64,000 nt of DNA, from contig JACRMQ010000007.1 in assembly GCA_016214905.1 (NCBI GenBank), forward strand, positions 631,695 through 695,694, written 5' to 3'. The stretch is from Ignavibacteriales bacterium. Its GTDB lineage: Bacteria; Bacteroidota; Ignavibacteria; UBA10030; SZUA-254. The notes under the pieces are model-generated. The model saw only the letters and a list, made by a program, of their open reading frames with translations, was not told the origin of the DNA and ran no database searches. Shown here piece after piece: positions 3,147 to 26,607 of the stretch. Position 1 is the first letter of the stretch. Every line of letters starts with the position of its first letter. The translations under genes were made by a program, and so were the position numbers.

Positions 3147-3569
3147 CCGCGCAACAAAATGTGATATTTTTCTACACCTAGCTACCCTCTAAAAGAATAG
3201 TTATACTAGTAGAATTGTCTTTTGGTCCCGAGCTATTGTCCATAAAAAGATCTGCCCGTTGATATCGATCTTCCTACCGCATAAAAAACAACAGGAAATA
3301 TTTCTTCCGGCTTCTTCGATTTTATTAAAAAATTTAATGTCTTTGTTCTCTTGCATTTCCCCTTTTGATGTGTTATATCAACGGCACATAAACGCTATTA
3401 GTGCCATTAATATATTTGGGATATTGAAATTTGAATCCAGTTTTTCACAATCCTACTTGCTTTCTTCTCTAATACCTCGTATATTTGTACGATAATATTG
3501 AGTAATTAGCAAGTGAATACTTGTAGATTACCTGTAAATCTCAGCAATTTTTACGATATTTACGAGATA

Positions 3570-5338: not shown

Positions 5339-5358
5339 CGAATATCATCTAACTTTTT

Positions 5359-7998: not shown

Positions 7999-8034
7999 GA
8001 ATCTGCATACATTAACAAAATAAGGACTGTTAAA

Positions 8035-9312: not shown

Positions 9313-9842
9313 AAGCTAAAAAGATGAGTATCGTAAAATTAGTTTTCGACCTTATTGAAGATAGTAATTATTTTCTCAAAGAAGCTGAAAAGTTAGAGAA
9401 TAATTCTTCGGTCCAGCAACGATTCCTAAGAGCATCCCTCCTGAGTGTTTGGTCTGGATTTGAAGGTTGGATTAATAAGACTTGTTCTGATTTAGCAAAA
9501 ACGATTACTGATATTACCGTGCATGAAAAAGGTTTCTTAGTCGAAAAAAGGATTGAGATGAAGAACGGTTTATTCGTGTTGACAAACTCTGATAAATATG
9601 AAACCATAGAGAATAAGGTCGATTATTTGCTTAGGAATTTTGGAAACCGTAGGCTCGATAAGTCAAATAAACATTGGCAAAACTTTAAATTTGTCAAAGA
9701 ATTACGTGATTCCATTGTTCATCCTAAGAAAATTAATCCACCGCATTTATCGATTTCAAACGTACGTTTAGCTATAGAAACTATTAAATATTATTTACAG
9801 TTGCTCTCGATAAGGATTTACAAAACTAAACTTGAGATATAA
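9309..9842 (+). CDS. HEPN-domain protein (putative RNase effector)
   Basis: 177 aa. C-terminal ELRDSIVHPKK is a canonical R-x4-H HEPN motif, and the N-terminal half looks helical. Translationally coupled to the preceding gene; ends 5 nt before hsdM. Confidence 0.55.
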   Translation: MKAKKMSIVKLVFDLIEDSNYFLKEAEKLENNSSVQQRFLRASLLSVWSGFEGWINKTCSDLAKTITDITVHEKGFLVEKRIEMKNGLFVLTNSDKYETIENKVDYLLRNFGNRRLDKSNKHWQNFKFVKELRDSIVHPKKINPPHLSISNVRLAIETIKYYLQLLSIRIYKTKLEI

Positions 9843-9847
9843 TAATT

Positions 9848-11269: not shown

Positions 11270-12836
11270 TACCATTCTGAATCCATCGAAGGCGCGTAAA
11301 GAATCTGATTTTACACCACCTAACGGTTTACCACCAGGATGGGCCAATGTTGTTCTCGAAGAGGTCTTGCTTTCAATCGAGAATGGGAATCGTCCAAAAG
11401 GTGGGGTTCGAGCATACACTAGCGGTGTACCTAGTATTGGAGGTGAACACTTAAATGATGATGGCGGTTTCAAATTTGATAATATTCGCTACGTTCCGGA
11501 GGATTTCTACCAGAAACTTAATAGAGGCAAAATTAAACTTCAGGATGTGCTTATCGTAAAAGATGGAGCAACCACAGGTAAAGCATCTTTCATTAACAGT
11601 GATTTCCCTTACAAAAGTGCAGCTGTCAATGAACACGTGTTCATCATTCGTGGATGTCCTCAAGTGATCGACCAACGATATCTGTTTAGGTACCTTTTCT
11701 CTAAAGCAGGCCAAGAACAAATCGACAGTAACTTTAAAGGTTCAGCTCAAGGAGGTATAAATTCGACTTTCATATTAAATTTCTTCCTTCCTCTTCCACC
11801 TCTCCCGGAGCAAGATCGCATTATTGAGAAGCTTGAGAAGCTGTTAGAGCGAGTCGAACGAGCCAAGGCATCCATCGAGAACGTTCCGAAGATTATCAAA
11901 CAATTCCGTCAGGCAGTTCTTGCTGCTGCCTGCTCAGGTAAGTTAGTCGAGCAGGATTCTTCTGATGAACCAGCATCTGAGCTGCTCAAGCGCATCCGCA
12001 TCGAGCGAAGAAAGAAATGGGAAGAAGATCTACATGCTCGCCGAAGCTCAAAGAGCGTAGGCGAGATTATCAAAGGCAAAGATCCGAAGAAATACAAGTA
12101 CGAAGAGCCAGTGGAACCGGATACATCAGAGTTGCCAGAGTTACCGAATGGGTGGGTGTGGGCATTTCTTGATGATGTTTGTCCATCAATCCAAGACGGA
12201 ACACATTATTCACCAAAAGTTCAATACAAAGAGCCGGGGAAAGATCGATATCTTTATATCACATCGAAGAACATAAAGGATGAAGGGATTGATCTTACGG
12301 ATGTTACTTATATAGATACCAAAATTCATGCAGATATATTCAAAAGATGTAATCCGGAGAACGGTGATGTCCTGCTCATAAAAGATGGTGCTATAACTGG
12401 TCGAGCGACTATCAACAACTTAGATGAAGAATTCAGCTTGCTTTCAAGTGTTGCATTGCTGAAGACAAATCACCAAATACTAACTCCTAAATATTTACGA
12501 AATTACTTGGTGAGCCCGTTAGGATTTAAAATTATAACAGGGCAAGTTACAGGGTCTGCAATTACACGTATTGTTCTCCATAAGATAAAGAGTTCGCCAA
12601 TATCGATACCACCATTAGCTGAACAGAAGCGCATCGTTGCCAAAGTTGAAGAACTCTTCACCCTTGCCGATACTATCGAAGCATCAGTCAAAAAAGCCCA
12701 AGCCAACGCTGAGAGAATTAAACAGTCACTCCTTACAAAAGCATTTCGTGGTGAGTTAGTCGAGCAGGATCCGAATGATGAATCGGCAAGTGTGCTGCTT
12801 GAAAGGATACAAGAAGAAAAGAAGAAACAGCAGTAA
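11250..12836 (+). CDS. hsdS: Type I R-M specificity subunit S
   Basis: Two target-recognition halves, each followed by the conserved helix LPPLPEQDRIIEKLEKLL or IPPLAEQKRIVAKVEELF. Overlaps hsdM by 20 nt. Confidence 0.9.
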   Translation: MAKRKSNTILNPSKARKESDFTPPNGLPPGWANVVLEEVLLSIENGNRPKGGVRAYTSGVPSIGGEHLNDDGGFKFDNIRYVPEDFYQKLNRGKIKLQDVLIVKDGATTGKASFINSDFPYKSAAVNEHVFIIRGCPQVIDQRYLFRYLFSKAGQEQIDSNFKGSAQGGINSTFILNFFLPLPPLPEQDRIIEKLEKLLERVERAKASIENVPKIIKQFRQAVLAAACSGKLVEQDSSDEPASELLKRIRIERRKKWEEDLHARRSSKSVGEIIKGKDPKKYKYEEPVEPDTSELPELPNGWVWAFLDDVCPSIQDGTHYSPKVQYKEPGKDRYLYITSKNIKDEGIDLTDVTYIDTKIHADIFKRCNPENGDVLLIKDGAITGRATINNLDEEFSLLSSVALLKTNHQILTPKYLRNYLVSPLGFKIITGQVTGSAITRIVLHKIKSSPISIPPLAEQKRIVAKVEELFTLADTIEASVKKAQANAERIKQSLLTKAFRGELVEQDPNDESASVLLERIQEEKKKQQ

Positions 12837-12870
12837 AATAATCACATAAAGAAGCGAAAAGGTTCACATA

Positions 12871-13275
12871 ATGCCATTTGATGATGAAACCATAGAATTA
12901 GTGTTCGAAAAAGCAAATGGAAAATGCCACTACTGTGGTAAGCAGCTATCATGGGCAAATTACGGTCGCCGAGACGCGCGAGGTGGCTGGGAAATTGATC
13001 ACAGTTTTCCTCGTTCTCGCGGAGGAACTGATCATCTTAATAATCTTGTACCATCGTGCTGGACATGTAACCTGGATAAGAGTAATACTTCGAGTAAACA
13101 ATTCAAACGATATGCTGAACCATTGAAACGAGATCGCAAAAAGAAAAGAATAGAAAAAACGGTAACCGAGATCCTTGGTATAGCTGCTATCGGAGCGCTT
13201 CTCATAATAGGAGCTAAGATGCTCTCCAACTGGCTCGACAAGAGCAATCAGTCTGATAACCCTCCGAATCCATAA
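12871..13275 (+). CDS. HNH endonuclease with C-terminal transmembrane anchor
   Basis: CHYCGKQL...WEIDHSFPRSRGGTDHLNNLVPSCWTCNLDKS is a beta-beta-alpha-Me HNH motif with CxxC...CxxC. A basic linker (KRDRKKKR) follows, then the hydrophobic helix ILGIAAIGALLIIGAKML. Confidence 0.8.
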   Translation: MPFDDETIELVFEKANGKCHYCGKQLSWANYGRRDARGGWEIDHSFPRSRGGTDHLNNLVPSCWTCNLDKSNTSSKQFKRYAEPLKRDRKKKRIEKTVTEILGIAAIGALLIIGAKMLSNWLDKSNQSDNPPNP

Positions 13276-13345
13276 ATAGATTTGTACCTACTCACACCCC
13301 TGTTCCGAAGTATTTCGGGAAAGATATTCATTATTTTTCTCTCCC

Positions 13346-13383
13346 TTTTTTGAATATAGTTGCGCACACTTGTCTTTTTCGGC
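13346..13383 (+). repeat. 38-nt direct repeat, copy A (left boundary of the ImmA-PIN-giant cassette)
   Basis: ttttttgaatatagttgcgcacacttgtctttttcggc matches 21442-21479 at 36 of 38 positions in the same orientation. The flanking sequence is unrelated. Confidence 0.85.
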
Positions 13384-13396
13384 ACGTCTTTGTTCA

Positions 13397-13432
13397 GTTG
13401 ACAAAATGTAATATTTTTCGTATATTGTCAAC
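13397..13432 (+). promoter_or_regulatory. Sigma70-type promoter embedded in an 8-bp inverted repeat (candidate operator of the XRE-ImmA regulator)
   Basis: TTGACA (13398-13403), 17-nt spacer, TATATT (13421-13426). Inverted repeat gttgacaa (13397-13404) / ttgtcaac (13425-13432). A GGAG lies 6 nt before ATG 13451. Confidence 0.6.
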
Positions 13433-13450
13433 CAGAGAAATGGAGAATTT

Positions 13451-14521
13451 ATGATTGGTATTCGAATTAAACAAGCTCGGTTAGCAGCGGGCTTTTCCTT
13501 ACGAGAATTGGCAGAAAAGACGGATAATTATATAAGTGCACAAGTTATACATAAGTATGAACTTGGTAAATCTATGCCCGGCTCCGATGTGTTGCTTAAA
13601 TTAACAAAAGCGTTAGGAGTAAAGATGGAATTTTTCTTTCGTCCTTTAACTCAAAATGTATCACTTAGTTTACCTGCATATCGAAAACGTGCAACGGCTT
13701 CGGTTAAACATCTTCAATCCGTTCAATCCCATGCAAAAGATTGGGTCGAAAAATACCTAGAAGTTGAATCACTCTTCTCCGATCATCGGGTTTTAAAAGT
13801 ATCTTTACCCAAAGAACAAGATCGATTTATATCTAAGTTGGTGGATGTAGAACATTTAACTAAAGAACTGAGAAAACATTGGAAACTTGGGATTGATCCT
13901 ATCGAACATCTAACTGAAGTTCTTGAAGATAGAGGAGTGAAGGTTGTCATGCTGGAAGGCGAGGATGATTTTGACGGTCTATCTTGCTGGGCAAATGACG
14001 AAATCCCCGTAATTGTTGTGAAGAAAAATCAAACTTCCGATAGATTACGTTTCAGTATCGCTCACGAACTTGGCCATCTGCTTATGAAATTATCATCGTC
14101 TGTTAATCCGGAGAAAGCTTCAGACCGTTTTGCAGGTTCCTTTCTTGTCCCCGAAGAAGCCGTCCGGCTTGAACTTGGGGAATCGAGAAATAAACTCAGT
14201 GTTTTTGAACTAAGGTCGATTAGAAAAAAGTATGGTATGAGCATTCAGGCATGGATATACAGAGCAAAGGATGTAGGTGTCATCACTGAAAATTATGCGA
14301 CGTCAATTTTTCGATTATTTAAAAAATTAGGTATCCATACCAAGGAACTTGGAGATCAGCTTCCTTCCGAGCAACCAAAACGTTATGAACGTTTAGTCAT
14401 TCAGGCTGTTGAAGAAGGATTGTTATCCCCAGCCCGTGCAGCTGAGTTGCTTGGCATATCACTTAACGAATTCCGAAAAAATCTTAAGGGTGGCTTTGAA
14501 AGATCCGACACTAGTTCTTGA
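13451..14521 (+). CDS. XRE-family HTH fused to an ImmA/IrrE (COG2856) zinc metallopeptidase domain
   Basis: N-terminal HTH (IGIRIKQARLAAGFSLRELAEKTDNYISAQVIHKYELGKSMP). HExxH site in FSIAHELGHLLM. Confidence 0.85.
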   Translation: MIGIRIKQARLAAGFSLRELAEKTDNYISAQVIHKYELGKSMPGSDVLLKLTKALGVKMEFFFRPLTQNVSLSLPAYRKRATASVKHLQSVQSHAKDWVEKYLEVESLFSDHRVLKVSLPKEQDRFISKLVDVEHLTKELRKHWKLGIDPIEHLTEVLEDRGVKVVMLEGEDDFDGLSCWANDEIPVIVVKKNQTSDRLRFSIAHELGHLLMKLSSSVNPEKASDRFAGSFLVPEEAVRLELGESRNKLSVFELRSIRKKYGMSIQAWIYRAKDVGVITENYATSIFRLFKKLGIHTKELGDQLPSEQPKRYERLVIQAVEEGLLSPARAAELLGISLNEFRKNLKGGFERSDTSS

Positions 14522-14987
14522 CACAAGTATATGTGTCGATCTTTCCAATGGGAAGCTGCTCGAAATTGCATTGCAGCTACACTATACATTTCTTTTACCA
14601 GATGTCATCGCTGGTGAGTTAATGGATCCACAGGGAGAAGACTTGCTGAAGATAGGTTATAAGGTAATTAATCTTGCACCCGAACAAATCGGTTACATCG
14701 AAATATTAAATCAAAAATACAGTCAGCCTTCGAGAGCCGATTTATTTGCGCTTGCATCAGCAAAATATCTCTCGTGTATTTTGCTGACAGGAGATCAATC
14801 ACTTCGTAAAGCTGCAGACACAGAATCAGTAGAAGTTCATGGAATATTATGGTTGTTAGACAAACTTGTATTTGGCAAGCTAATCACTGCGGATTTTGCT
14901 TCCCATTCACTTAATAATATAATCGAAAGCGGAAGCTGGTTACCCAAAAAAGAAATCGAAACGCGATTGAAGAAATGGAAAAAATAA
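14490..14987 (+). CDS. PIN-domain protein (COG2405/DUF3368-like)
   Basis: LVLDTSICVDL is the N-terminal acidic PIN motif. ILLTGDQSLRKAADTESVEVHGILWLLDKLVFGKLI follows the DD..aR..A...G..v.GtlgvL pattern. GTG 14490 is proposed as the start (32-nt overlap with the upstream gene); the ORF-track start at 14409 would overlap by 113 nt. Confidence 0.7.
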   Translation: MALKDPTLVLDTSICVDLSNGKLLEIALQLHYTFLLPDVIAGELMDPQGEDLLKIGYKVINLAPEQIGYIEILNQKYSQPSRADLFALASAKYLSCILLTGDQSLRKAADTESVEVHGILWLLDKLVFGKLITADFASHSLNNIIESGSWLPKKEIETRLKKWKK

Positions 14988-15041
14988 TGCTGTTAAAATT
15001 CTCGCTTGAAATTAATCAAGTTAAATTATTATTAATAGATT

Positions 15042-18000
15042 TTGAGATCAAACATCGTGCGTGACGATTTTTCACAATCAGTGAAGGAATTACTTGCTAA
15101 GCGAGTTAATTATCTTTGCTCAAATCCGAAGTGTTTGAGACAAACTTTAGGACCACATTCCGATCAATCAAAATTTGTTAGTGTTGGAGTAGCGGCTCAC
15201 ATTACTGCAGCAGCACCAGGTGGAAAAAGATATGATCGGTCGCTCTCTAAAAAAGAGAGAATGAGTTCGAGGAATGGTATCTGGCTCTGCACAGATTGCG
15301 CAAAAATAATTGACACTGATGAGGTTGCATACCCAGTGGATCTCTTGCAAACATGGAAAAGAAGCGCAGAGACTTTAGCATCGAAGGCTTTCCAAAGCGG
15401 GTTTTCAATTGCGAGTGAGGGGTCGTCATTGTCGCTATTGTACTCAATTAATGCTGATAACCAAGAATTAGTATCCCAAATTAATACGATTACTGAAAAA
15501 GAATTGGAAGATCAACGTCAATCTTGGCGTGAAGGAAAAAGAGAAGACGCTCAACTATGGATATCTTCAGTTAAAACAAACGATACAATATGGTTAGCTC
15601 TGCCAGGCGAAACTAAAGGCAAAATTCTGAATTTTGAAGCAGCTATCGGTCTTGATAGTATGAGTGACATCAATCATGTCCAAATATTAATCAACCAAGC
15701 AGGACAAATCGCACCTTCTGTAAATCAAGTCCGTCTACGAGCGATGCTTACATACAAAATGTCCGGTCCAATTGATGCAATCAAACTTCTTGACGAACAG
15801 ACGGACATCGATGGACTTAATCTAAAAGCAGCTTTATATCTTGAAACTGGAGAAATACAAAAGTGCGAAGAAATATTCGTCTGCGATGGTGGATTGGATG
15901 CACTTACAAAGCAAAAACCCAACGCAGAGGTGTTCAGAATTCGTGCGCTTCTACATCTTGTAAAACGTGAGATTGATCTATCTCGACTCGCGATTCGAAA
16001 AGCATTGGAGCTTCAACCCAAGTGGGAAAGTATCAGAATTACTGCAGCTCTGATAAACTATTTCTGTGTTATTGTTCCTGCCGCACTTCCTGCACGACTC
16101 ATGCCTTGGCCTGAGCCTGTCGATTGGCGAGCTCTTAAACGTGATAACGATAGCGTTAGATATCTCCGCGAGGCAACAGAGACCTTCAAAGAGCTCATTG
16201 AATCTCATAGGAACAATCTCGAAATACGCCAAACATTCGAATCATGGTTTATTGCTTGTCTATTAAATGATGCTATGCGGCAAGACGAAGCGATAGCGTG
16301 CTGCCAGAATTTCTTAAAAGATGATCCTGCTCACTATCGAATAGTTGCTTGGGTAACTTCTCGTAACTTGGATATAGACCTTCGACCGTCGATACATACT
16401 CTTGAGAATCTTATTAGAAGAAAGAATGCTACAGCCATTCATGTTGTTATTCTCGTTAGTTGCTATTTGATAAAAAAACGTTCGACCAAGGCTATTAAAT
16501 TGCTTCAACAGCAAAAGAATATCTTTCTCCAACAGAAAGGTAAAGAGCTTTGGCACTTCTGGAACGTTCAATCTTATGTAGTTGGAGAAGATATCAAAGG
16601 TGCCGCACGTGCCATAAAGGAGTGCTCGACAGAGATCAATACACAATCGCTGGAAGAGATGATTCTGCATGCCCAATTCATAAAGGATGGAAAGCCGGAA
16701 CCATTAATCGAATATCTCGAATCAATTCACAGGAAAACTAACGATCCAATATATTTGCTTGAAGCGTGTGAAGTAATGGCTCAGGGGGGCAATTGGAAAT
16801 ATGTATCCGAGCGCGCTGACATACTAATTAAGGAAGTTCAAAGTATTCAAGCGGTGAGGTTAACAGCTATATCGACACTAAATAATGGTGACCCAGGAAC
16901 TTGTCTGAAGATCATTGATGATCACATCCATATTTTCCCCGACCGTCAACTCCCAAGTGATCTCCGTCGAGTCAGAATCCAAGCGACACGAGCTCTCGGT
17001 TTGTTGCCAGATGCCTTAGCCGAAGCTGAAAAACTTGCTCACGATGATTCATCTACAACAAATATTCTCAATTGTGCTCAATTGTATTTCGAAACTGGTG
17101 ACTTGAAAGGTCTCGCGACTAATGCGAGACTGCTTATTGATCGTACAGATGTCACTTCTGAACAATTATTGAATTTGGTACGGTTAGTTAATTTGGGGGA
17201 CCATAATTTAGCATGTGCACTATGGCGAAAAGCTATGAATAATGGAATCCCTGATTCTACTGTTTCTCTGGCTTTTGGGCTTGCATTTCAGCTTGGGCTC
17301 GAAAAGGAAATTGGTTCACTTCATAAGCGAATGGCTGACCTCAGTCATTCTAGTCGTCATGGTGTTAAAATGTTTTCTCTCGATGATTTAATTTCCCTTA
17401 TAAAGAATCAGCGAGAGCATACTGAAAAAATAGAAGACGCTTACAATAATGGGATTGCACCAATACACCTTATTGTTGAGCTAGCCAATAAGACACTTGT
17501 GGAGCTTTATCATTGGTCTTTGACTAAGCGTGAACAAGCACGCGATCCTCAATATCAATCATATCTCTTAGCGCGTCATGGAGGCAAACTACTAATGAAT
17601 TGTTTCCCCCAGGAAGCTCCTTCATGGAACCTCCACTTAGACATTACAAGTATTCTACTCGCAGAGCACTTGGGTATATTTGATTTCATTGAAAAATCAT
17701 TTACTCCAATTATGATTCCAATGGAAACGATACCTGCACTTCTTTATATGCAAGAGCGGATGAAATACCATCAACCTAGTCGATTGGAGGAATTTCGAGC
17801 TATCCTTAATATGATTGAGATGCAAAAGATTTTTGTAATTGAGGATCGACTTAAAGAAGAATATGAGAATCATTCTCTTATAGAAGAGATGGGTATGGAC
17901 TGGGTCTCCCTGCTTGAGAACGCACGGATAAAGAATGGTTATCTCGTCGATTTTCTTCCACTTATAAAAAATGATCGGAGTGGTCCTCCCAGTGCTCTTT

Positions 18001-21000
18001 CCCGTGAAATGAGTCAATTGATCCTTGATAAACGTGCCGTTATAGAATCACTATACAAATTTGGTCCTTTGACAAGCGACAATTATAAGCATGCACTCGA
18101 AGCAAATGGCTATTCGAAAGATAATGAGTGTAACGGTCAAGTGCCCACGCAGGGAAAGAATCTACTTTTCCATTTCAATACAATTGAAGGATTTTCTAGC
18201 TCTGGAATGCTTGATGCTCTATGTGAACGATTCACTGTCTACATTGAAAAGAATGAACTAGACCATATTAAAGCAGAGCTAGATTCTAATCAACAAACAA
18301 CAGAGGTATTCCACTGGTTGGGTGTTTTGATTGACCGACTTCGAAGTGGTGTAGATAAGAATGTCTATTCAATTCTTCCTGCTGTTCAATCAGATAAGAA
18401 AAGTGAAGATATCGGTAATGATCTTGAGAGTAAGTGTCTCAGATCCTTATTTCAATACAAGGTTGCACCAGGGGACGTGATATGGTCAGATGATCGTTTC
18501 ATGAACAGTTATGCCCATCGTGATGGGGCACCAATAGTCGGAGTAAACGAAATATTAAAAGGACTTGTCGCAGCCGGGTCTATCAATGAGGATGTTTACT
18601 ATGAGAAGATAAGTCGGCTACGTGCTGGAAATGTCCTATTTGTTCCAGTACTAACCGAAGAAATTCTATATCATATACGACACGCACATGTTCATGAGGG
18701 AACCCTTGTCGAGACCGATGATCTCATAATACTTCGACGTTACATCTCCTACTGTTTATCAAAAGGTCACCTTCTCCAGCGTCAGCCAATGCAGGAAAAT
18801 GCACCGAACAGAGACGGTGAGATTGCTTTTATCATAAGTCTAGGTCGTGCCTTAAATGAAGCGCTTGTTGAGATTTGGTGGGACGAAAATGAAGAAGAGA
18901 GAATTCTGCTTGCAAGGTCAGAATGGGTTCTGAACAATCTACTTATGAATCACCTCGCCATTTTTGAACAGACGGGCTTACATAAACCTGAGCACGATGA
19001 CCTCTTCATTACGGCACTTAGTCTTTCAATTCTCTTGACCCACGCCATCCAGTTCAAAATTAAGTCTTCATCGCTAAAAGAAACTCCGCGTCAAAAGTAC
19101 TTTCGGTGGTTATACCACCGCGTTCTTCGGATGCGATTCGAAGCCGATCCGCACCTTCCAGAAATTGTTGCAAATCAAATCAACAAGACACTGCAATCAA
19201 TGCCTATCAAAAGCGCTGATCCGCAGACTATCAGTGCAGAATTGTTCATCCTGCAATCCTATTTTCATGATCTCCCCGAACCAATTCGTGAAGCACTTTC
19301 GAAGGATCATGACTTCATGGAGAGTATTGGATTGAAATATGGTCCACTTGTAACAGTAGCAGAACATTCATTTGAAGCCCAGACATTTTACAGTGCTGTT
19401 TTGGAGGCAATTAATGGGAGAGAAGTAATAGCATCAACGACTCATCCTGAAAAGAGAGATATTACCTTTATGCCAATGTTGGAGGGCAGATCTGATGGTT
19501 TTTGCATCATAAACCCTTCTACAAATGAAAGACTTCAGGTTGTAGAGGAGACAATTGGAATACTCCGAGATTCTATAAACGAACAACAGACTTTTCTAAA
19601 ACAACATCGATCTTGGTTCGATGTTGATGAAGAAACATACACAAAAATCTCTACTGAGATTCTTTCAATTCGAGATGCTCGAGGAAGGATGGATGAGATC
19701 CAATCATGGCGTGATAGAAGTATGAGCGTTCATTACCAAACCATCACATCAAAAATAAGAAAGACTTCTCAGATCAATTTACAGCAACTAGATCCACCAA
19801 CAGCTGAAGGTATTCTTGGGTATCTACGTATTCCTTTGTCCGCAGGACCAGGGGCAGAGTTCAAACGTGCATTAGAGATTGCTGCAACATTGTTGATCGC
19901 AGAAGAAGGCCTTTCTGAGGCGATAAAGCGACTTTTTGCTTTGCCTGTTCCATTACCAGATGCTCTTTTAGATGCTGTCACACAACTTTCCCGGGAAAAA
20001 CGTCGATCTCTAATCAAAAGAATATTGAGAACTTCACCATCACCCGTGTCGAGAATTCATTTAATTCGTATTATCTCGGATTGTCTTACGGATTCACCAT
20101 CTTATCTATATCTGTTACGTCGAATTGTCAGAGGGTTGCTAAGTGATGAGGGAAAAGAATGCTTTGGAGCGTTTTCAAGTGTTCTGAAATACTTCAATGA
20201 AGAATTTACTCATTCAAATAAATTTACGAAAATACCTTATCATATTCGGTTGGCAGCTTGCTGGGCGCACTCGAACCAAATTTTTTCGATATTCGTTTTC
20301 GAGGGAACACCGATAAAATGGATAGAAGAAACCTTTTCAATCTCGCGGCAACGGTTGCCTTCTGATGTCTTCAAGCGAGATCCTGAGTATTGGTTCAATA
20401 TTATCCACCCCCGACGAATCAATAGGCTAGGATTCCTACTTTCAGGTATTGGATATTCGTTCGGACAAAATGCTTTACACATAGTCAATGAGCATATACT
20501 AGGTATAATTACTGAGGTAGCCTTTCCTGTTATCAATGGTAAACCATTCCCGTCTCATGAGATTTTGCTTGATCCTTCTCTCTTTAATGATTCGGTGAAT
20601 TCATTTCTTAGCGGCGATCGCGGTGAGAAACTGGCGCCATTGCTTGGCAACGACTTGGCCGACATGCTCAGCAAAGCATCACTTGAAACCTCGACTCTTG
20701 ATGTGGTCAAGTCTCTTATCGAGCGACAAACCGATTTCTCACTTTGGGCATTATTACACGCGTTGATCGGTGAGTTGCCTCCCCCGAAGGAGGTCGCGGA
20801 ACATTTGAAATCCTTGATGCGAAAAAGTGACTTGCTCGAGATCTACCATTCTAATGTCGAAGCTGGACAGTTCGCAGTGCTTATGTTAACCCAACAGTTG
20901 ATCAATCTTAAGGATGAAGGATTGCGTCAGAGGTTTCGCAGTCAACTGATTGCGTTGACAAAATATCTTGCAGACAATCTTTCTACTACCAAGATATCAA

Positions 21001-21245
21001 GGCAAGACGAATACCCAAACAAAATACAATATGTTCTTGTTAAGTCTGCATTCAATATTTCGGTTGCAGTAGAGCCACCCAGAGATTCGGTAGAAGGGTT
21101 TCAGGCTTTACTGACTGACCTCGTGAAAGCATGGCCAGCAATGATCCCTGCATGCAGTACTCTCGTTAATCGGTTTTGTGAGGAATTACCTATCGTCGAG
21201 GCAAAAAAGCTTTATCACTTGCTTGTTCGAATTCGATTGCACTGA
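15042..21245 (+). CDS. Giant (2067 aa) multidomain protein: N-terminal HNH-like nuclease, TPR-like array, internal PIN-like segment, ~800-aa helical C-terminal region of unknown function
   Basis: A single uninterrupted ORF. aa ~20-110: CSNPKC...VAAHITAAAPGGKRYD...RNGIWLCTDCAKIID (HNH family, with the last His replaced by Ala). aa ~180-760 is TPR-like helical repeats. LHLDITSILLAEHLG... and ...VIWSDDRFMNSYAHRDGAPIVGVNEILKGLVAAGSI resemble a split PIN. No Walker A motif seen. The start is uncertain (TTG 15042 or GTG 15057). Confidence 0.75.
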   Translation: MRSNIVRDDFSQSVKELLAKRVNYLCSNPKCLRQTLGPHSDQSKFVSVGVAAHITAAAPGGKRYDRSLSKKERMSSRNGIWLCTDCAKIIDTDEVAYPVDLLQTWKRSAETLASKAFQSGFSIASEGSSLSLLYSINADNQELVSQINTITEKELEDQRQSWREGKREDAQLWISSVKTNDTIWLALPGETKGKILNFEAAIGLDSMSDINHVQILINQAGQIAPSVNQVRLRAMLTYKMSGPIDAIKLLDEQTDIDGLNLKAALYLETGEIQKCEEIFVCDGGLDALTKQKPNAEVFRIRALLHLVKREIDLSRLAIRKALELQPKWESIRITAALINYFCVIVPAALPARLMPWPEPVDWRALKRDNDSVRYLREATETFKELIESHRNNLEIRQTFESWFIACLLNDAMRQDEAIACCQNFLKDDPAHYRIVAWVTSRNLDIDLRPSIHTLENLIRRKNATAIHVVILVSCYLIKKRSTKAIKLLQQQKNIFLQQKGKELWHFWNVQSYVVGEDIKGAARAIKECSTEINTQSLEEMILHAQFIKDGKPEPLIEYLESIHRKTNDPIYLLEACEVMAQGGNWKYVSERADILIKEVQSIQAVRLTAISTLNNGDPGTCLKIIDDHIHIFPDRQLPSDLRRVRIQATRALGLLPDALAEAEKLAHDDSSTTNILNCAQLYFETGDLKGLATNARLLIDRTDVTSEQLLNLVRLVNLGDHNLACALWRKAMNNGIPDSTVSLAFGLAFQLGLEKEIGSLHKRMADLSHSSRHGVKMFSLDDLISLIKNQREHTEKIEDAYNNGIAPIHLIVELANKTLVELYHWSLTKREQARDPQYQSYLLARHGGKLLMNCFPQEAPSWNLHLDITSILLAEHLGIFDFIEKSFTPIMIPMETIPALLYMQERMKYHQPSRLEEFRAILNMIEMQKIFVIEDRLKEEYENHSLIEEMGMDWVSLLENARIKNGYLVDFLPLIKNDRSGPPSALSREMSQLILDKRAVIESLYKFGPLTSDNYKHALEANGYSKDNECNGQVPTQGKNLLFHFNTIEGFSSSGMLDALCERFTVYIEKNELDHIKAELDSNQQTTEVFHWLGVLIDRLRSGVDKNVYSILPAVQSDKKSEDIGNDLESKCLRSLFQYKVAPGDVIWSDDRFMNSYAHRDGAPIVGVNEILKGLVAAGSINEDVYYEKISRLRAGNVLFVPVLTEEILYHIRHAHVHEGTLVETDDLIILRRYISYCLSKGHLLQRQPMQENAPNRDGEIAFIISLGRALNEALVEIWWDENEEERILLARSEWVLNNLLMNHLAIFEQTGLHKPEHDDLFITALSLSILLTHAIQFKIKSSSLKETPRQKYFRWLYHRVLRMRFEADPHLPEIVANQINKTLQSMPIKSADPQTISAELFILQSYFHDLPEPIREALSKDHDFMESIGLKYGPLVTVAEHSFEAQTFYSAVLEAINGREVIASTTHPEKRDITFMPMLEGRSDGFCIINPSTNERLQVVEETIGILRDSINEQQTFLKQHRSWFDVDEETYTKISTEILSIRDARGRMDEIQSWRDRSMSVHYQTITSKIRKTSQINLQQLDPPTAEGILGYLRIPLSAGPGAEFKRALEIAATLLIAEEGLSEAIKRLFALPVPLPDALLDAVTQLSREKRRSLIKRILRTSPSPVSRIHLIRIISDCLTDSPSYLYLLRRIVRGLLSDEGKECFGAFSSVLKYFNEEFTHSNKFTKIPYHIRLAACWAHSNQIFSIFVFEGTPIKWIEETFSISRQRLPSDVFKRDPEYWFNIIHPRRINRLGFLLSGIGYSFGQNALHIVNEHILGIITEVAFPVINGKPFPSHEILLDPSLFNDSVNSFLSGDRGEKLAPLLGNDLADMLSKASLETSTLDVVKSLIERQTDFSLWALLHALIGELPPPKEVAEHLKSLMRKSDLLEIYHSNVEAGQFAVLMLTQQLINLKDEGLRQRFRSQLIALTKYLADNLSTTKISRQDEYPNKIQYVLVKSAFNISVAVEPPRDSVEGFQALLTDLVKAWPAMIPACSTLVNRFCEELPIVEAKKLYHLLVRIRLH

Positions 21246-21441
21246 TGAGAATTTGGTTTTACGGAATCAAACAGAGTTGATTTGAGCTAACTAATTCACT
21301 CCTTCGGTTACGTTTCATATTCAAGCCGCGCAGCATTTTATATTATAACATTTGATGTGTACTACCCGGGCAGGATGAAACGTAAAGTCTAAACCGCAAA
21401 CTAAGAGCACACCCATGCTTCAGGCTTTTATTCCCAATTAA

Positions 21442-21479
21442 TTTTTTCAATATAGTTGTGCACACTTGTCTTTTTCGGC
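21442..21479 (+). repeat. 38-nt direct repeat, copy B (right boundary of the cassette)
   Basis: ttttttcaatatagttgtgcacacttgtctttttcggc, 36/38 identical to 13346-13383. Lies 197 nt after the giant gene's stop. Confidence 0.85.
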
Positions 21480-21557
21480 TGACGCCTCAAAAGAACAAGA
21501 GAGCACTTTATCATAGTCGTCCCGCATCGAAGCGGGACTAATTAACATGAGCGCAAA

Positions 21558-21609
21558 TCCTGCGGTTTTAAAATTTATTATAATATTTTTAGGTTTTTAA
21601 AACGCAGGA
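21558..21609. repeat. Long AT-rich hairpin
   Basis: tcctgcggttttaaaa (21558-21573) pairs with ttttaaaacgcagga (21595-21609), 15 bp with one bulged g, ~21-nt AT loop. Confidence 0.5.
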
Positions 21610-21668
21610 ATTGCTCACTAACTCTTACTAATCCCCATTTCTATTGACTTAATCCTACCACAACCAAG

Positions 21669-21845
21669 CCTCCGCAATCATACTGTTATTCAATAAGCCA
21701 AAACTAAAATCGGCTTCGCGATTCCATTTCTGAAAGTTTCTCGATAGGGATGGAATCGCTCTTTATTTTGCCTGCATTCACTCGCAACCGTTTATGATTG
21801 CGGAAAGTTCTCTTTGGTTACTTTCTCTTCAAAGAGAAAGTAACA
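21669..21845. ncRNA. Structured repeat element, copy 1 (candidate non-coding RNA; family not recognised)
   Basis: 177 nt sharing its ends and stem-forming segments with 23296-23473. P1 ccgcaatcata (21672-21682) / tatgattgcgg (21793-21803). P2 gcgattccat (21718-21727) / atggaatcgc (21760-21769). Terminal 12-bp hairpin at 21817-21844, plus a competing hairpin 21808-21817 / 21829-21838. Strand undetermined. Confidence 0.5.
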
Positions 21846-22180
21846 ACTCCAACTCTTATTTTCTGAGCTCCTACATTCTAACTTAACAAACGCATTGTTG
21901 CTAACTTCATCATTTGATCAGGCATCCCGACTCGATTGCCATCTAGACGGGATCTGTTCTTTCCCCAGCATAAACACAAAGTCCCACAACCGGGTGGTGA
22001 GCGCCGTGGGAGGGCCGGTCACTCACGTGGGATCCCGGAAGTGGGACAAAACCGCATCCAATCTAACACATTCCTAATTATTTTTCAAATCTCAAAACCT
22101 ACTATTCAACTCATTTAATTGACCGCTTTAAATTGAAATATATCCCCGATAAAATCCCACTCCCTCGTCAAGGGCAAGTC

Positions 22181-22208
22181 TCCCGCCACAAGAGAAGTGG
22201 CGGGATTT
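22181..22208 (+). terminator. Terminator-like hairpin in gene-free DNA
   Basis: tcccgccac (22181-22189) / gtggcggga (22197-22205), a 9-bp GC-rich stem with 7-nt loop followed by ttt. No protein gene lies upstream within ~900 nt, so it may end a small RNA or be a REP-type element. Confidence 0.35.
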
Positions 22209-22255
22209 AAATCGTGAACGCTCACAATCATATCGCTCCACTCCTTCATAAACCC

Positions 22256-22297
22256 TGTCCTGAGCGATCCCGCTCCTTGAGCGGGAGAGCCGAAGGA
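22256..22297. repeat. REP-like element of the gtcctgagcg...cgaagg family
   Basis: tgtcctgagcgatcccgctccttgagcgggagagccgaagga is nearly identical in outline to 62302-62343 (tgtcctgagcgatcccgctagaagagcgggagagtcgaagga). Contains the hairpin tcccgct/agcggga. Confidence 0.7.
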
Positions 22298-22625
22298 TCA
22301 GTCCGTTCTGCTCTATCATTGCTCGCTAAAAAATTTTGGTTCCCTCTCACGTCACCGCAGGATTGTATTCACAAACCTGTGGTGTGTGGGGAAAGAAGAA
22401 GTGGCAACATCCACGCCATTCCGTTTTACGGAAGTGTCATGTATGTCGCATATTCACTTCTTCTCTCCCCCAAAATTTTATTTCACGACCCTTGACTTCG
22501 GTCGTCCCTTTGAAATGATGATCTCTACAAGCGGTCAATCAGTTTTTGAGAAGTTTTTCGAGAAAACTGCCCTGAGCGAAGGCGAAGGGTCTGACTGCAT
22601 TTAATCACAAATACAAGAGGTCATT

Positions 22626-23219
22626 ATGTCACATCAACAACTCAACCAAATCTTTTCACAATACATTTCAACTTTGTATAACGCTGCAAAACGAATGATC
22701 GACAAACGGCATCCACAGTATGATGATAAAGTTCAAGACCTTGTCATTCTTGCGTACGAGGAATTTATCCGTAAAGTTAATGAAGGGAAAATAATGGAGC
22801 TTGCGCTTCTAATTCATTACATGAAACTTCGCAAGAAAGAAGTGCAGATAGAAATGAGAGGGTATTCCCGGACAAATAAAACTGACGTGTTCAATAAGCG
22901 GAATTATTATGAAGGGAAGTTAGAGCTTCATTCAATCGACAATTCTATCTTCAATGGTGAAGGAGACACATACGCAGATATTATTCAAGATGAATCCAAT
23001 CTTGAAGATTATCTTCATTATAAAATAGATCTTGATACCCGTTTATCAAAACTATCAGAAAAGGAGAGAATTATTTTTATGATGAAAGAAGAAGGTTACA
23101 ACGATGACGAAATCGCTCAAGCAGTGTCGGTTAACATTCAAACAGTCAAAAGTTTTATAGACCGACTTTTATTGGAATTCTCCAATAAACACTCGAATCA
23201 ATTTACACTTCAACTTTAA
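22626..23219 (+). CDS. Sigma-70-family-like factor / region-4 HTH protein (phage or mobile-element type)
   Basis: 197 aa. The C-terminal LSEKERIIFMMKEEGYNDDEIAQAVSVNIQTVKSFIDRL looks like a sigma region 4 / LuxR-type HTH. The N-terminal half is only loosely region-2-like. Confidence 0.55.
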   Translation: MSHQQLNQIFSQYISTLYNAAKRMIDKRHPQYDDKVQDLVILAYEEFIRKVNEGKIMELALLIHYMKLRKKEVQIEMRGYSRTNKTDVFNKRNYYEGKLELHSIDNSIFNGEGDTYADIIQDESNLEDYLHYKIDLDTRLSKLSEKERIIFMMKEEGYNDDEIAQAVSVNIQTVKSFIDRLLLEFSNKHSNQFTLQL

Positions 23220-23295
23220 CTTACCTATAATTCCCACCGAAAAGGATTCCGTCTCAGCCAAATGAGACGGAATTCCACTTCCTATATGTTTTTCC

Positions 23296-23473
23296 CCTCC
23301 GCAATCACACTGTTTTACAATAGCCCTTAACAAAATGAGCTTTGCGATTCCGTCATTCATAGCCATGATCAGGCTAAGGAATCGCTTTTTAATCATGCTG
23401 CTATTTCGAAAGCAACCGTTTGTGATTGCGGAAAGTTCTCTTTGGTTACTTTCTCTCCAAAGAGAAAGTAACA
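23296..23473. ncRNA. Structured repeat element, copy 2
   Basis: P1 ccgcaatcaca (23299-23309) / tgtgattgcgg (23421-23431). P2 23344-23351 / 23378-23385. Terminal hairpin 23445-23456 / 23461-23472. Perfect competing hairpin ttctctttgg (23436-23445) / ccaaagagaa (23457-23466). Ends 110 nt upstream of the next gene. Confidence 0.5.
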
Positions 23474-23582
23474 ATTAATCAATTTCTTTCTTGACGACTG
23501 AATGAAAATCCATCCACAATAACTTTGGTATAAGAAGTATGCAATCAACAATAATCCAAAACAATTAAAAGGAGATTTTACA

Positions 23583-24302
23583 ATGAACACACAAAGAGAA
23601 TTTGTGCAACTCAAAGAGCACTACATCGCAGACGTCACGCTGAAATTTGCCACCGGTCTTAAGAAGGAAGGTCAATTCGGTCCGTATTTACTTTATTCCG
23701 TTCAACACGAAGGGAAAGAGAAGTTCTTGAAAGTTACGGATCGGTTGGAGAAGCAGTTCCGTAAGTTCGACGTGAAAGCCGGTCAAGTAGTAAGCTTGTT
23801 AAAAGAAACCATCACACCGAAAAATGGTGAGCCGTTTACGGTGATAAATGTACTCGAATGCAAGGATGCACCTCACGAAGTGATGGATTCCCAAAAACCC
23901 GAGAAAAAGGAGGAGTTGATTCCACAAAAAGTGGAAAGTGCTCAACCCATCCCACAAACACCAGAAGGTTTTTCCGGTGATACATTAACAATGTATCAAT
24001 CCTTACATGATGCAGTCGACATCACAAAAACCATTGATGGAGTGGAGTGGAGAAATACCGACATCGAAAAAATCGGTGTTTGTTTGTTTCTCTCACGCAC
24101 CGGACAGCTTACAGTCGATAAGGTTCTTTCCAATGGTAATGGAAACGGTAAGCGCTTACATCGTTCTGCACCAAAGGCGCATCAGCCTCTGGCTGATAAG
24201 AAAGTTGAAGATGTGAAACCAGCTACAGTCCCTGAAAAGGTTCAAGAAATGGTTCCGGTACCAGCTGAGGTAGCCGTTGAAAAAGACGACTTGCCATTCT
24301 AG
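23583..24302 (+). CDS. Hypothetical protein with SSB-type acidic C-terminal tip (possible phage ssDNA-binding protein)
   Basis: 239 aa ending ...VEKDDLPF, resembling the D-D-D-I-P-F tip of bacterial and phage SSBs. A Pro/Glu-rich linker precedes it. The N-terminal ~95 aa could be an OB fold, but I recognise no canonical SSB motif. Good RBS (aaaggag). Confidence 0.45.
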   Translation: MNTQREFVQLKEHYIADVTLKFATGLKKEGQFGPYLLYSVQHEGKEKFLKVTDRLEKQFRKFDVKAGQVVSLLKETITPKNGEPFTVINVLECKDAPHEVMDSQKPEKKEELIPQKVESAQPIPQTPEGFSGDTLTMYQSLHDAVDITKTIDGVEWRNTDIEKIGVCLFLSRTGQLTVDKVLSNGNGNGKRLHRSAPKAHQPLADKKVEDVKPATVPEKVQEMVPVPAEVAVEKDDLPF

Positions 24303-25380: not shown

Positions 25381-26130
25381 TGCGGTGCTCGCTTCCGCAC
25401 TCGGGCTGACGGGCATTGCGTGGCTGCGCATGCGGGGCTGTGCGCTTATGAGTGTTTTTTCGCTTCGCCTCGCTCAGTTGCGTGGCGGGCGTCAGTCGGT
25501 TGCTTCGGCTTGGGCTGGCTGGCGTTGGCGTTTCGCCTGCGTGTTCGCCCTCTTGGTTTCGTTATGTTTTCTTCTTTTGCTTCCGTTGGCTTCTGTGGTT
25601 CTCGGTCGCTTCCTGCGTCCGCTCAGTCGCTGGTTTCCTCTGTTGTCGGTGCTGTGTGTTCTGGTTCTTCCGCTTCGCTTGCTGTTGGCTGTTCGGTGGG
25701 CGCTGATGCTTTCGTGCTCTCTTCCGTTCCGTGTTCCGTTGTGTCTCGTCTCTCTGTGTTTGCCGCTTTCGGTTTCGGTGGTTTCGGTTCGTGTTCTCTC
25801 TCTGCTGTTTCTGCTGTGCTTGCTGCTGCTCGTTGTGGTGCTCGTGTTCGCTGGTGGGCTGGCGGTTTGCCTTCCGTTCCGTTGCGTCAGCGCCTTGCTT
25901 TGCGTTCTGTTGCTCTCGTCCGTTTCCTTGCCCGTCGTCCGCCGTCTGTTCTTGTTTGCTTTCTCTCGTCTCCTCGTTCTCGTGGTTCGCTGCTGGCGTG
26001 TCGTCTCGCTGTTCGCTCTGGTGTCGCTGTGTTTGTCTTTTGTGTCGGTTTCTCTCCAGTTCGTCTTCCTCGTGTCGGTCGTGGCTCTTGGTTGCCCGTT
26101 CAGGTTGCTGGTCTTTCTGCTTTTCGCTGG
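25381..26130. other. Adenine-free (+ strand) / thymine-free (- strand) tract, stop-free in all six frames
   Basis: Hand count gives 14 A in 750 nt, and only 5 A in 25501-26100. A sampled 60-nt line is T ~47%, G ~28%, C ~25%. Flanks are ~30% A. A graded A-poor shoulder runs 25165-25380. Five overlapping tracked ORFs here exist only because stop codons are impossible. Confidence 0.9.
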
Positions 26131-26214
26131 CAGCAGGCATCATAGGTGTGGTTAAAGAATAGGTGTTCAATTCATTTGTGTATTTGGTATAACATTAACA
26201 AGAAAGGATTCAAT

Positions 26215-26607
26215 ATGAAAACGAAATCATTTTTCATTTCAACAATACTCGTCATTATCTGTGAGATTATTTTTCAAGGACAAATCATAGCTGATGTCAA
26301 GAAGGCAATTCAAAATCTTCAGGAAGGTCTTGATGAGGCAATCCTTACAATAATTCCGGATGAAAGAAAATTTGTTCGATTCGACAAACGTGAAGATGGA
26401 ATATTAATCTACAAAGTATCGATGCAAAAAGTTGATGAAAAGACCGTTCGAATTCGTGTCACCGGATACAGTGGAATGGATGTCATCTCTATCATAACGT
26501 ATCGAATCATTGATGGAGAAAGTTATAAAACGATTGAAGAGTACAAACATCAGAAACAAGCCACCGACATTGGTATAACAAAAACAAAGAAAGGAGTCAA
26601 ACAATGA
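26215..26607 (+). CDS. Small secreted/membrane-anchored hypothetical protein
   Basis: ATG 26215 is preceded by agaaagga. The N-terminus MKTKSFFISTILVIICEIIF looks like a signal peptide or anchor. No motif recognised. Confidence 0.5.
   Translation: MKTKSFFISTILVIICEIIFQGQIIADVKKAIQNLQEGLDEAILTIIPDERKFVRFDKREDGILIYKVSMQKVDEKTVRIRVTGYSGMDVISIITYRIIDGESYKTIEEYKHQKQATDIGITKTKKGVKQ

Follow-up and report, generated by a model that had tools for sequence, protein, structure and literature searches.

A dispersed intergenic repeat family with covarying helices and a mirror-symmetric 3' module, represented twice beside a sigma-like gene of an Ignavibacteriales bacterium

Two similar non-coding stretches flank the gene of a sigma-like protein in the 64,000 nucleotides (nt) analysed here from an Ignavibacteriales bacterium (assembly GCA_016214905.1, contig JACRMQ010000007.1, positions 631,695 to 695,694; hereafter the window, in whose own numbering positions are given), a sequence that originates from groundwater metagenomes. 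Their presence raises the question of whether such elements regulate the genes beside them or belong to something that has spread more widely. A preliminary description of the window had located them at 21669-21845 and 23296-23473, and had attributed their conserved stems and diverged interior to selection on RNA structure rather than to a repeat of the miniature inverted-repeat transposable element (MITE) type. The coordinates, the + strand and the pattern of conservation were confirmed. As for the interpretation, selection on the helices was borne out by covariation over 25 related units, while the contrast with a repeat failed, because the element is multi-copy across phyla, shows presence/absence polymorphism and occurs in inverted doublets. 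It is well supported by the comparisons below that each of the two stretches represents, as a singlet, a large family of dispersed intergenic repeats found across several phyla.

The repeat unit and its distribution

Copy 1 lies about 420 nt past an open reading frame (ORF) of 2067 amino acids (aa) and about 780 nt ahead of the sigma-like gene, and copy 2 between the latter and a 239-aa ORF; both are in direct orientation and co-oriented with the neighbouring genes (Table 1). Identity between the copies is 80% over the 5' 40 nt, where they share the block CCTCCGCAATCA(T/C)ACTGTT, and 97% over the 3' 63 nt. Each is closed by P1, a perfect helix of 12 bp (11 bp in the preliminary description) in which TCCGCAATCA(T/C)A pairs with T(A/G)TGATTGCGGA; the double compensatory change reported for this helix, T21681:A21794 in copy 1 versus C23308:G23422 in copy 2, is exact. 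P2 is kept in both copies, as had been stated, and so is the perfect terminal hairpin (H) of 12 bp. The 10-bp pairing described as competing with H was also found (21808-21817 with 21829-21838 in copy 1, with an equivalent in copy 2), the one difference being U.G in copy 1 against C-G in copy 2. The minimum free energies are -60.1 kcal/mol for copy 1 and -58.7 kcal/mol for copy 2, with z-scores of -6.9 and -5.9 relative to dinucleotide shuffles. As the reverse strand is equally stable (z-scores of -7.1 and -6.8), folding energy alone cannot name the strand. The copies start with CCTCCGC and finish with GTAACAA, their ends thus not being inverted and lacking terminal inverted repeats, and the terminal hairpin is not followed by a U-tract in either. 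A covariance model, one of the checks proposed earlier, recovers both copies, and neither the model run with filters off nor pattern searches gave a third one in the window; shuffled sequence yields zero chance matches to the element patterns.

Across the family, the unit consists of P1 (9–13 bp) enclosing two homologous half-units, followed by a pyrimidine block (X), a linker of 1–2 nt and a hairpin of about 12 bp. Its length is 180–260 nt, of which the covarying P1/P2 body takes up 130–200 nt. The half-units, of about 55 nt and the form CCGAAAT...GGCTGG...GTGCGTT.ATTTCGG, are each an imperfect palindrome (CCGAAAT...ATTTCGG), and their inner arms form P2. In an alignment of 25 units of the Bacteroidota/Chlorobi type, P1 is paired in 99% of cells, with double changes at six of its nine pairs (one column holds A-U 15 times, C-G 7 times and G-C 3 times), and P2 in 88%, with double changes at five of seven pairs. 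Overall, 96% of the cells are paired, compared with 87% in shuffles and 39–53% when the 3' partners are slid, and 64 cells carry double changes, compared with 18.5 in shuffles, so that the covariation which homologues had been expected to display is present. The same holds for individual relatives: where copy 1 has U:A and copy 2 has C:G, the pair is U.G in the unit of a close relative (L126), and the orthologous copy in another (L044) has two further compensatory pairs in P1. This indicates that P1 and P2 are under selection and that compensatory change keeps the fold.

The stem of the terminal hairpin carries an extension of 4–5 bp of mixed sequence which also covaries (GTTAC/GTAAC, GTGAC/GTCAC, GCTTA/TAAGC and CCCCA/TGGGG, among others). 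Over 125 distinct tails, the extension has 418 Watson-Crick pairs, 42 G.T and 7 A.C. Since G.T exceeds A.C six to one, the strand that must pair is the one reading X-H, which is the + strand of the window, and the pairing is, on these counts, selected on one strand. The tolerance of G.T on one strand thereby also identifies the strand that is relevant to the triplex geometry discussed below.

When contigs of other metagenomes were compared with the region, only the 3' module (approximately 21805-21845), of the form GTTCTCTTTG(G)TTACTTTCTCT-loop-AGAGAAAGT(A/G)AC, proved to be multi-copy, with many different flanks. In the source samples, contigs break at the module, where the depth rises to 3–4 times the flanking level, and alternative flanks are seen, among them the 3' end of a tRNA abutting the hairpin. 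Other metagenomes give the same picture of contigs breaking at the module. An exact-pattern scan of genomes gave 34 stretches, carried by Bacteroidota and 'Chlorobiaceae' metagenome-assembled genomes (MAGs) and by Oscillospiraceae isolates, including Pseudoflavonifractor, Intestinimonas and Lawsonibacter. A scan of metagenomes gave at least 120 stretches, with several copies per long contig and many matches at contig ends. Variants of the module occur in Ilyobacter (Fusobacteriota), Parabacteroides distasonis and Subdoligranulum, and the module was also found in Burkholderia and Caballeronia (Burkholderiaceae), so that it is nearly unchanged in at least four phyla. The repeat family explains the assembly breaks in the genomes that carry it and, for the purpose of annotation, the appropriate label for the two stretches is that of repeat elements instead of a regulator of the sigma-like gene.

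The units have no constant companion. Clustering of all ORFs around about 140 units gave no recurrent neighbour protein or mobilising enzyme; the largest cluster was made of spurious ORFs over the conserved non-coding element in high-GC genomes, and the neighbours are ordinary, unrelated genes (e.g. ABC transporter, acetyl-CoA synthetase, metallophosphoesterase, dioxygenase). Ordinary genes, and no RAYT-like gene, were also found between the paired units of three loci (L061, L032 and L033). No RAYT (Y1 transposase) is present in the 64-kb window or in the related loci, which are mostly short rather than whole genomes, and no transposase, RAYT or integrase recurs beside the units of these loci or lies near the window copies.

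Gain and loss of units can be followed in the closest relatives. L126, whose flanks are 89.5% identical over 1.5 kb, has a unit between its homologues of ORF 26146-26607 and of the next ORF, where only 10 nt are present in the window. This single filled/empty comparison shows neither a target-site duplication nor clean ends, and about 70 nt of extra flank travels with the unit. The syntenic loci L057 and L093 do not have copy 1. The site of copy 2 is occupied in L057, L093 and L044, the flanking proteins being only about 60% identical, and the orthologous copy does not evolve faster than the flanking genes (77% identity compared with 72–76%). L044 has a second unit on the other side of the 239-aa gene. 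Head-to-head pairs of full units, 25–40 nt apart, occur in at least 12 other loci, and many units have an inverted half-unit upstream. Burkholderia sp. THE68 possesses a foldback element, about 500 bp long, with the module at each end in inverted orientation (H-X' ... X-H). This element corresponds to L186 (chromid) 1404-2107, and both of its outer flanks give matches to the Rfam small RNA candidate Bp1_684, likewise in inverted orientation and below threshold (37.3 and 30.6 bits, for a cut-off of 44).

Sequence conservation extends past both ends of the unit in several subfamilies. In high-GC loci of Burkholderiales type (L075 4461-5311 and related ones), the conserved non-coding block is far larger, spanning about -600 to +300 around the module and holding further GC-rich hairpins; a segment of L075 located downstream (5238-5311) has very high depth in size-fractionated rhizosphere metatranscriptomes.

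No description of the element was found in Rfam 15 or in the searchable literature. The window has no Rfam 15 match at gathering thresholds, and none up to E = 10 over 21200-23700, nor does any Rfam 15 match overlap the units in 18 related loci. Literature searches with the module sequence returned chance matches in eukaryotic papers only. The 2.4-kb region has no match in a phage database, where the module alone gives only weak partial matches. A scan of viral contigs based on P1 (CCGCAATCA-N95-125-TGATTGCGG) gave 27 matches, approximately the number estimated by chance, and none was homologous on inspection. Integron attC sites, template or variable repeats of diversity-generating retroelements, retron non-coding RNA, IS110 bridge RNA, TnpB/IscB guide RNA and CRISPR repeats were all rejected, because partner genes are missing nearby, the layout is mismatched or there is no Rfam match.

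The mirror layout of the 3' module

The near-invariance of the 3' module raises the question of what is being conserved in it. Judging from the sequences compared, the family-wide feature is that X mirrors the 5' arm of the hairpin and that the 3' arm is the matching purine run. X and purine arm are found in the combinations TTCTCTTT and AAGAGAAA, TTTCTCTT and AAAGAGAA, CTCTCTTT and GAGAGAAA, CCTCTCTTTT and AGAGAAAAG, TTTTCTTT and AAAAGAAA, CTTCTTTT and GAAGAAAA, TTTTTCTTTCT and AAAAAGAAAG, and CCCTCTCCCCT and GGGAGAGGGGA. Among the 38 distinct X/hairpin types, 26 have a mirror match that exceeds the direct match in length, 3 have a shorter one, and in 9 the two are equal. As a direct match is what a Watson-Crick alternative requires, the prevalence of the mirror match makes a triplex-type layout the better reading. 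In the window, the layout is TTCTCTTT - GGTTAC - TTTCTCT(T) - (T/C)CAA - AGAGAAA(G), which would allow for 7–8 triads. The order of Hoogsteen pyrimidine, Watson-Crick pyrimidine and purine strands is that of a class IV (pyrimidine-motif) intrastrand triplex, and the complementary strand is class II, according to the definitions of Hoyne et al. and Holder et al. (PMC4666352). RNA can form only the pyrimidine-motif triplex (PMC4666352).

The Watson-Crick alternative reaches 9 bp or more only with YCAA or TTAA loops (9–10 bp, in the window subfamily) and amounts to about 6–7 bp in the other subfamilies. The alternative-hairpin switch that had been proposed does therefore not hold for the family, in which the conserved trait is the mirror of the 5' arm. 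Both alternative hairpins moreover share their 3' arm and have no U-tract, which leaves no on/off terminator logic.

The closest described elements are the BoxC/PIT intrastrand-triplex repeats and the repeats of REP/BIME/MITE type (the latter are considered in the next section), and the present element, as read from its sequence, fails at least one defining feature of each. PIT elements, also named BoxC/TMECO, are found in E. coli and other bacteria (Hoyne et al. 2000; Holder et al. 2015, PMC4666352). Like them, the present units are intergenic and have three consecutive blocks on one strand able to form a hairpin and a third strand, and the blocks in the window have the PIT dimensions (at least about 7 nt, with short loops). 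Both are also multi-copy, sometimes in opposite-strand pairs, lack a constant neighbour gene and are tied to local gain or loss of sequence. However, TMECO is G/C-rich (CCCTCNCCC...GGGNGAGGG...GGGNGAGGG), belongs to the purine-motif class II and occurs mainly in Proteobacteria (PMC4666352), while the window module is A/T-rich (TTCTCTTT / TTTCTCTT / AAGAGAAA) and of the pyrimidine-motif class IV on the G.T-tolerant strand. The present module further differs in its covarying 4–5-bp stem extension, its attached P1/P2 body of 130–200 nt and its near-unchanged state in at least four phyla. The window module does not fit the TMECO pattern CCCTCNCCC-N3-6-GGGNGAGGG-N3-GGGNGAGGG, and a C-rich relative was seen once, in L057. 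It is located on the - strand just past the 3' end of the 239-aa homologue and reads CCCTCTCCCCT-TTTAT-TCCCCTCTCCC-AAAATT-GGGAGAGGGGA, with a mirror match of 11/11; its composition is like the complement of the E. coli BoxC/TMECO pattern. The concerted change of X and hairpin arm provides comparative support for a triple-helix geometry, of a kind that is absent for BoxC/PIT in PMC4666352, and no later literature on intrastrand triplex repeats was found beyond that paper.

In viral and lncRNA structures of the ENE/MALAT1 type, which cap 3' ends, the major groove of a helix takes up a U-rich strand, and the resulting U.A-U and C+.G-C triples are proposed to guard against 3' decay. There, as in triplex riboswitch pseudoknots, a U-rich internal loop clamps a 3' A-rich tail, while here a pyrimidine block located just 5' of a hairpin would bind the purine arm of that same hairpin. 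It is conceivable, though we regard it as doubtful, that the end module of 40 nt forms a genuine triple helix of this geometry in RNA and serves as a portable device for transcript boundaries or RNA protection in at least four phyla, a bacterial counterpart of ENE/MALAT1-type caps. If so, mobile structured repeats would carry it at their ends, and in the rRNA operons of some Clostridia it would directly abut the termini of tRNA and 5S. A triplex formed in RNA would represent a new and widespread way to mark or protect transcript ends, and one formed in single-stranded DNA an unrecognised mobilisation system of very broad host range.

A proposed role at transcript boundaries, and mobility

Dispersed structured repeats and intrastrand-triplex motifs are both known in bacteria, neither with an agreed function, and the present case joins them, in that a near-invariant mirror-symmetric module is attached to structured bodies which evolve fast and yet covary. 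The account that we favour, with confidence balanced at about even, is that of a dispersed structured repeat with a co-transcribed, triplex-capped boundary module that also spreads. According to it, the unit would be transcribed together with its neighbours and the transcript would fold compactly, ending in a triplex-capped hairpin. The capped structure may then mark the transcript boundary, in that 3' exonucleases stall at it or transcripts are terminated or insulated there, a role modelled on REP/BIME, ERIC and pneumococcal BOX repeats. The copy at the sigma-like/239-aa site would have been kept since the lineages diverged, and the spread to new sites would need a trans-acting function on the same folded strand. 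Taken on its own, the co-transcribed, triplex-capped boundary structure is a tentative proposal, less probable than the combined account, and a mobilising function of the same fold is slightly less likely again.

On the RNA side there are three hints: the module in rRNA operons, coverage in metatranscriptomes, and the long retention of the orthologous copy. In the rRNA operons of Pseudoflavonifractor and Lawsonibacter (Oscillospiraceae), X-H immediately precedes a tRNA and also 5S, and tRNAs are immediately followed by H and then the purine complement of X; these sites belong to one transcript. The operon of Pseudoflavonifractor phocaeensis (L043) has the order 16S, two tRNAs, 23S, two tRNAs, 5S, and its module variants lie exactly against RNA ends (about 120-165, 262-301, 455-495 and 3787-3838); L051 is alike, and both have a perfect TTGACA-17-TATAAT between the last tRNA and 5S. 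The unit of Burkholderiales type is spanned by metatranscriptome contigs, and a tail is covered by one contig. Pointing to DNA are the doublets and foldback elements, the fact that units lie either way round relative to genes, the gain and loss of copies and the small variation of the module from phylum to phylum, which suggests that a horizontally moving protein reads it.

Several points weigh against the account of a capped boundary module that also spreads. If G.U pairs and bases of the loop may take part, a Watson-Crick alternative roughly equals the Hoogsteen-compatible run in length, the latter exceeding it in 42 tails, falling short of it in 27 and matching it in 32. The sequence thus points to a triplex layout as what is conserved, without proving that a triplex forms. 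Of the eight triads, two would be C+.G-C, a weaker kind at neutral pH. Metatranscriptome contigs carry no direction and may contain DNA. The units occur in both orientations relative to the neighbouring ORFs (about 60:40 in favour of co-orientation, a weak and not decisive bias) and in inverted doublets, an arrangement no less compatible with a DNA-level element than with an RNA boundary module. The window, the related loci and the one filled/empty site gave neither a mobilising enzyme nor a target-site duplication nor an autonomous relative. E. coli PIT/BoxC elements moreover showed neither promoter nor terminator activity and no stable triplex in vivo (PMC4666352).

The alternative that survives best is a purely DNA-level selfish element of the REPIN, MITE or foldback type, whose fold (P1, P2, the hairpin and possibly a triplex) would form in single-stranded DNA of one strand and be read by a trans-acting enzyme, e.g. 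a strand-specific transposase of the HUH/Y1 (RAYT-like) kind, RNA effects being incidental. We consider it possible, albeit unlikely. It would account for the multi-copy dispersal, the assembly breaks, the presence/absence polymorphism, the doublets and the Burkholderia foldback, as well as for the two orientations. A horizontally moving protein reader would be expected to leave an end module near-identical across phyla, and tolerance of G.T on one strand would suit HUH enzymes specific for the top strand, if such an enzyme is involved. PIT elements are furthermore associated with local deletions (PMC4666352). However, no transposase, RAYT or integrase recurs beside the units of the related loci or lies near the window copies, the filled/empty site has neither a target-site duplication nor clean ends, a copy has been kept with compensatory changes at one intergenic site between proteins that are about 60% identical, and the module exactly abuts the ends of tRNA and 5S genes in rRNA operons.

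The comparison with described repeats is divided in the same way. REP/BIME hairpins are kept by compensatory change, and their effects at the RNA level are protection of mRNA 3' ends and termination. As with REP/BIME/REPIN, the present units are intergenic and palindromic, and arranged as singlets, inverted doublets and mosaics. They are nevertheless 180–260 nt long with nested helices, and not palindromes of 20–40 nt, and share a cross-phylum end module; REP/REPIN are mobilised by RAYT, while no RAYT or Y1 transposase was seen beside the present family in the sequences examined. MITEs such as Correia/NEMIS, ERIC, pneumococcal BOX and RUP are likewise non-coding and multi-copy with long RNA stem-loops, BOX also being modular, and the doublets and foldback elements of the present family in other genomes have inverted ends. 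The window copies, in contrast, lack terminal inverted repeats, and neither a target-site duplication (in the one comparison) nor a parent insertion sequence was found.

Much less probable is a family of independently transcribed small RNAs of about 180–260 nt, in which the terminal hairpin would be a terminator or 3' cap. The compact, covarying multi-helix units, the metatranscriptome coverage and the sub-threshold Bp1_684 matches just outside the Burkholderia module are consistent with it, while the lack of a conserved promoter upstream of the units, the conservation beyond both unit ends in several subfamilies, the doublets and the missing U-tract after the hairpin are not.

A gene-specific riboregulator or attenuator of the sigma/239-aa/Gp157 module, switching between two exclusive 3' hairpins as in the preliminary description, is very improbable and already largely refuted by the distribution of the family. 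In its favour, the window copies are co-oriented, copy 2 is in the leader of the 239-aa ORF at a site that holds a unit in four syntenic loci, and the window subfamily has the 10-bp alternative pairing. As in riboswitch or attenuator platforms, two helices compete for one strand there, but the family has no fixed regulated gene, conserved ligand core, U-tract or family-wide alternative helix. At 23202-23231, in the 3' end of the sigma-like gene, there is a near-consensus match to a sigma-70-type promoter (TTTACA-18-TATAAT, 11/12 positions), just upstream of a hairpin (23246-23273) and of copy 2, where it would start a transcript. A conserved promoter upstream of copy 2 was however rejected, since this site is not kept in the syntenic relatives. 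Most members of the family lie beside unrelated genes or in rRNA operons, so that the copies do not always accompany a sigma/SSB/Gp157 module, as had been suggested for checking; the L126 unit is at a different site, and the two units of L044 flank a different gene. The hairpins' shared 3' arm without a U-tract, the loss of the long Watson-Crick alternative in the other subfamilies and the lack of an Rfam match add to this.

Least probable of all is a nut-like site for processive antitermination, in which X would be a boxA-like NusB-NusE sequence followed by a boxB-like hairpin: X contains CUCUUU, the core of rrn and lambda boxA, the module stands in sense orientation directly upstream of tRNA and 5S in rRNA operons and is co-oriented with the window genes, and a universal partner would explain conservation across phyla, but X varies with the hairpin arm (TTTTCTTT, CTTCTTTT, CTCTCTTTT, CCCTCTCCCCT) without a fixed boxA consensus, some variants losing all resemblance to it, and there are inverted doublets as well as antisense units directly after tRNAs.

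Surroundings of the two copies

The genes in the section of the window around the copies are all on the + strand, and the nearest genome records are MAGs labelled Chlorobiaceae or Bacteroidota. The sigma-like gene is followed by the 239-aa ORF, a gene of the Gp157 family and then metal-efflux genes. Directly upstream of the copies there is a defence island (3513-21245). The window has no tRNA genes. The coordinates of the features are collected in Table 1.

Table 1. Repeat units, their parts and neighbouring features, in window coordinates.
Feature	Position	Strand	Details
Repeat unit, copy 1 (singlet)	21669-21845	+	Sequence comparison; covariance model, 134.5 bits over 21666-21856
P1 5' arm, copy 1	21671-21682	+	TCCGCAATCATA; partner 21793-21804
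P1 3' arm, copy 1	21793-21804	+	TATGATTGCGGA; fold and covariation
P2 hairpin, copy 1	21718-21759	+	Arms GCGATTCC (21718-21725) and GGAATCGC (21752-21759)
Pyrimidine block X, copy 1	21808-21815	+	TTCTCTTT; mirrors hairpin 5' arm; candidate Hoogsteen strand
Terminal hairpin H, copy 1	21817-21844	+	GTTACTTTCTCT / TCAA / AGAGAAAGTAAC
Repeat unit, copy 2 (singlet)	23296-23473	+	Sequence comparison; covariance model, 134.3 bits
P1 5' arm, copy 2	23298-23309	+	TCCGCAATCACA; partner 23421-23432
P1 3' arm, copy 2	23421-23432	+	TGTGATTGCGGA; fold and covariation
P2 hairpin, copy 2	23344-23385	+	Arms GCGATTCC (23344-23351) and GGAATCGC (23378-23385)
Pyrimidine block X, copy 2	23436-23443	+	TTCTCTTT; mirrors hairpin 5' arm; candidate Hoogsteen strand
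Terminal hairpin H, copy 2	23445-23472	+	GTTACTTTCTCT / CCAA / AGAGAAAGTAAC
Site empty in window	26560-26569	+	L126 has about 250 nt there, including a full unit 90% identical to copy 2
Sigma-like gene	22626-23219	+	
239-aa ORF	23583-24302	+	
AbiEii	4325-5338		Defence island
Type I restriction-modification R/M/S genes	5359-12836		Defence island
HNH protein	12871-13275		Defence island
HTH plus M78 peptidase regulator	13451-14521		Defence island
2067-aa ORF	15042-21245		Defence island; matches HTH_upstream_double_PIN, PIN-TPR-GreABC and permuted GreAB-C

Some further observations concern the non-coding sequence around the copies. The spacer before copy 1 (21519-21610) contains a hairpin, GTCCCGC-ATCGAA-GCGGGAC, and a long A/T-rich palindrome running from CCTGCGGTTTTAAAA to TTTTAAAACGCAGG; a weak, partial match of the covariance model was seen at 21515-21649 (14.4 bits, E = 0.02). 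About 160 nt upstream of the sigma-like gene, at 22388-22470, there is a hairpin with a purine-rich arm of 16 nt (GGGGAAAGAAGAAGTG) and a pyrimidine-rich arm of 16 nt (CACTTCTTCTCTCCCC). This patch and two others (21434-21506 and 22163-22187) are kept in L093 and L057, the rest of the 1.4-kb non-coding region being poorly conserved.

Further downstream, the + strand is nearly free of adenine (about 2% A) over a tract of 650 nt (25451-26100), in which all three + frames are open and which is overlaid by a 202-aa ORF on the - strand. The tract is also present in the close relative L126, and the homologous stretch in L057 and L093 has 17–19% A. The A positions of L057 and L093 are occupied in the window by C, G or T, with broadly similar counts of each (25/45/34 and 24/51/37), and most of the positions with C, G or T are unchanged. 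Adenine-specific divergence of this kind is known from diversity-generating retroelements; no reverse transcriptase was seen in the window. Lastly, the motif (T)TTGGTATAA, similar to an extended -10 promoter element, is found at 23524-23533, 26183-26192 and 26570-26578 of the window and at 1707-1716 of L126. It recurs 20–60 nt ahead of ORF starts, lies just downstream of copy 2 and, bordering the presence/absence polymorphism, follows the L126 unit as well.

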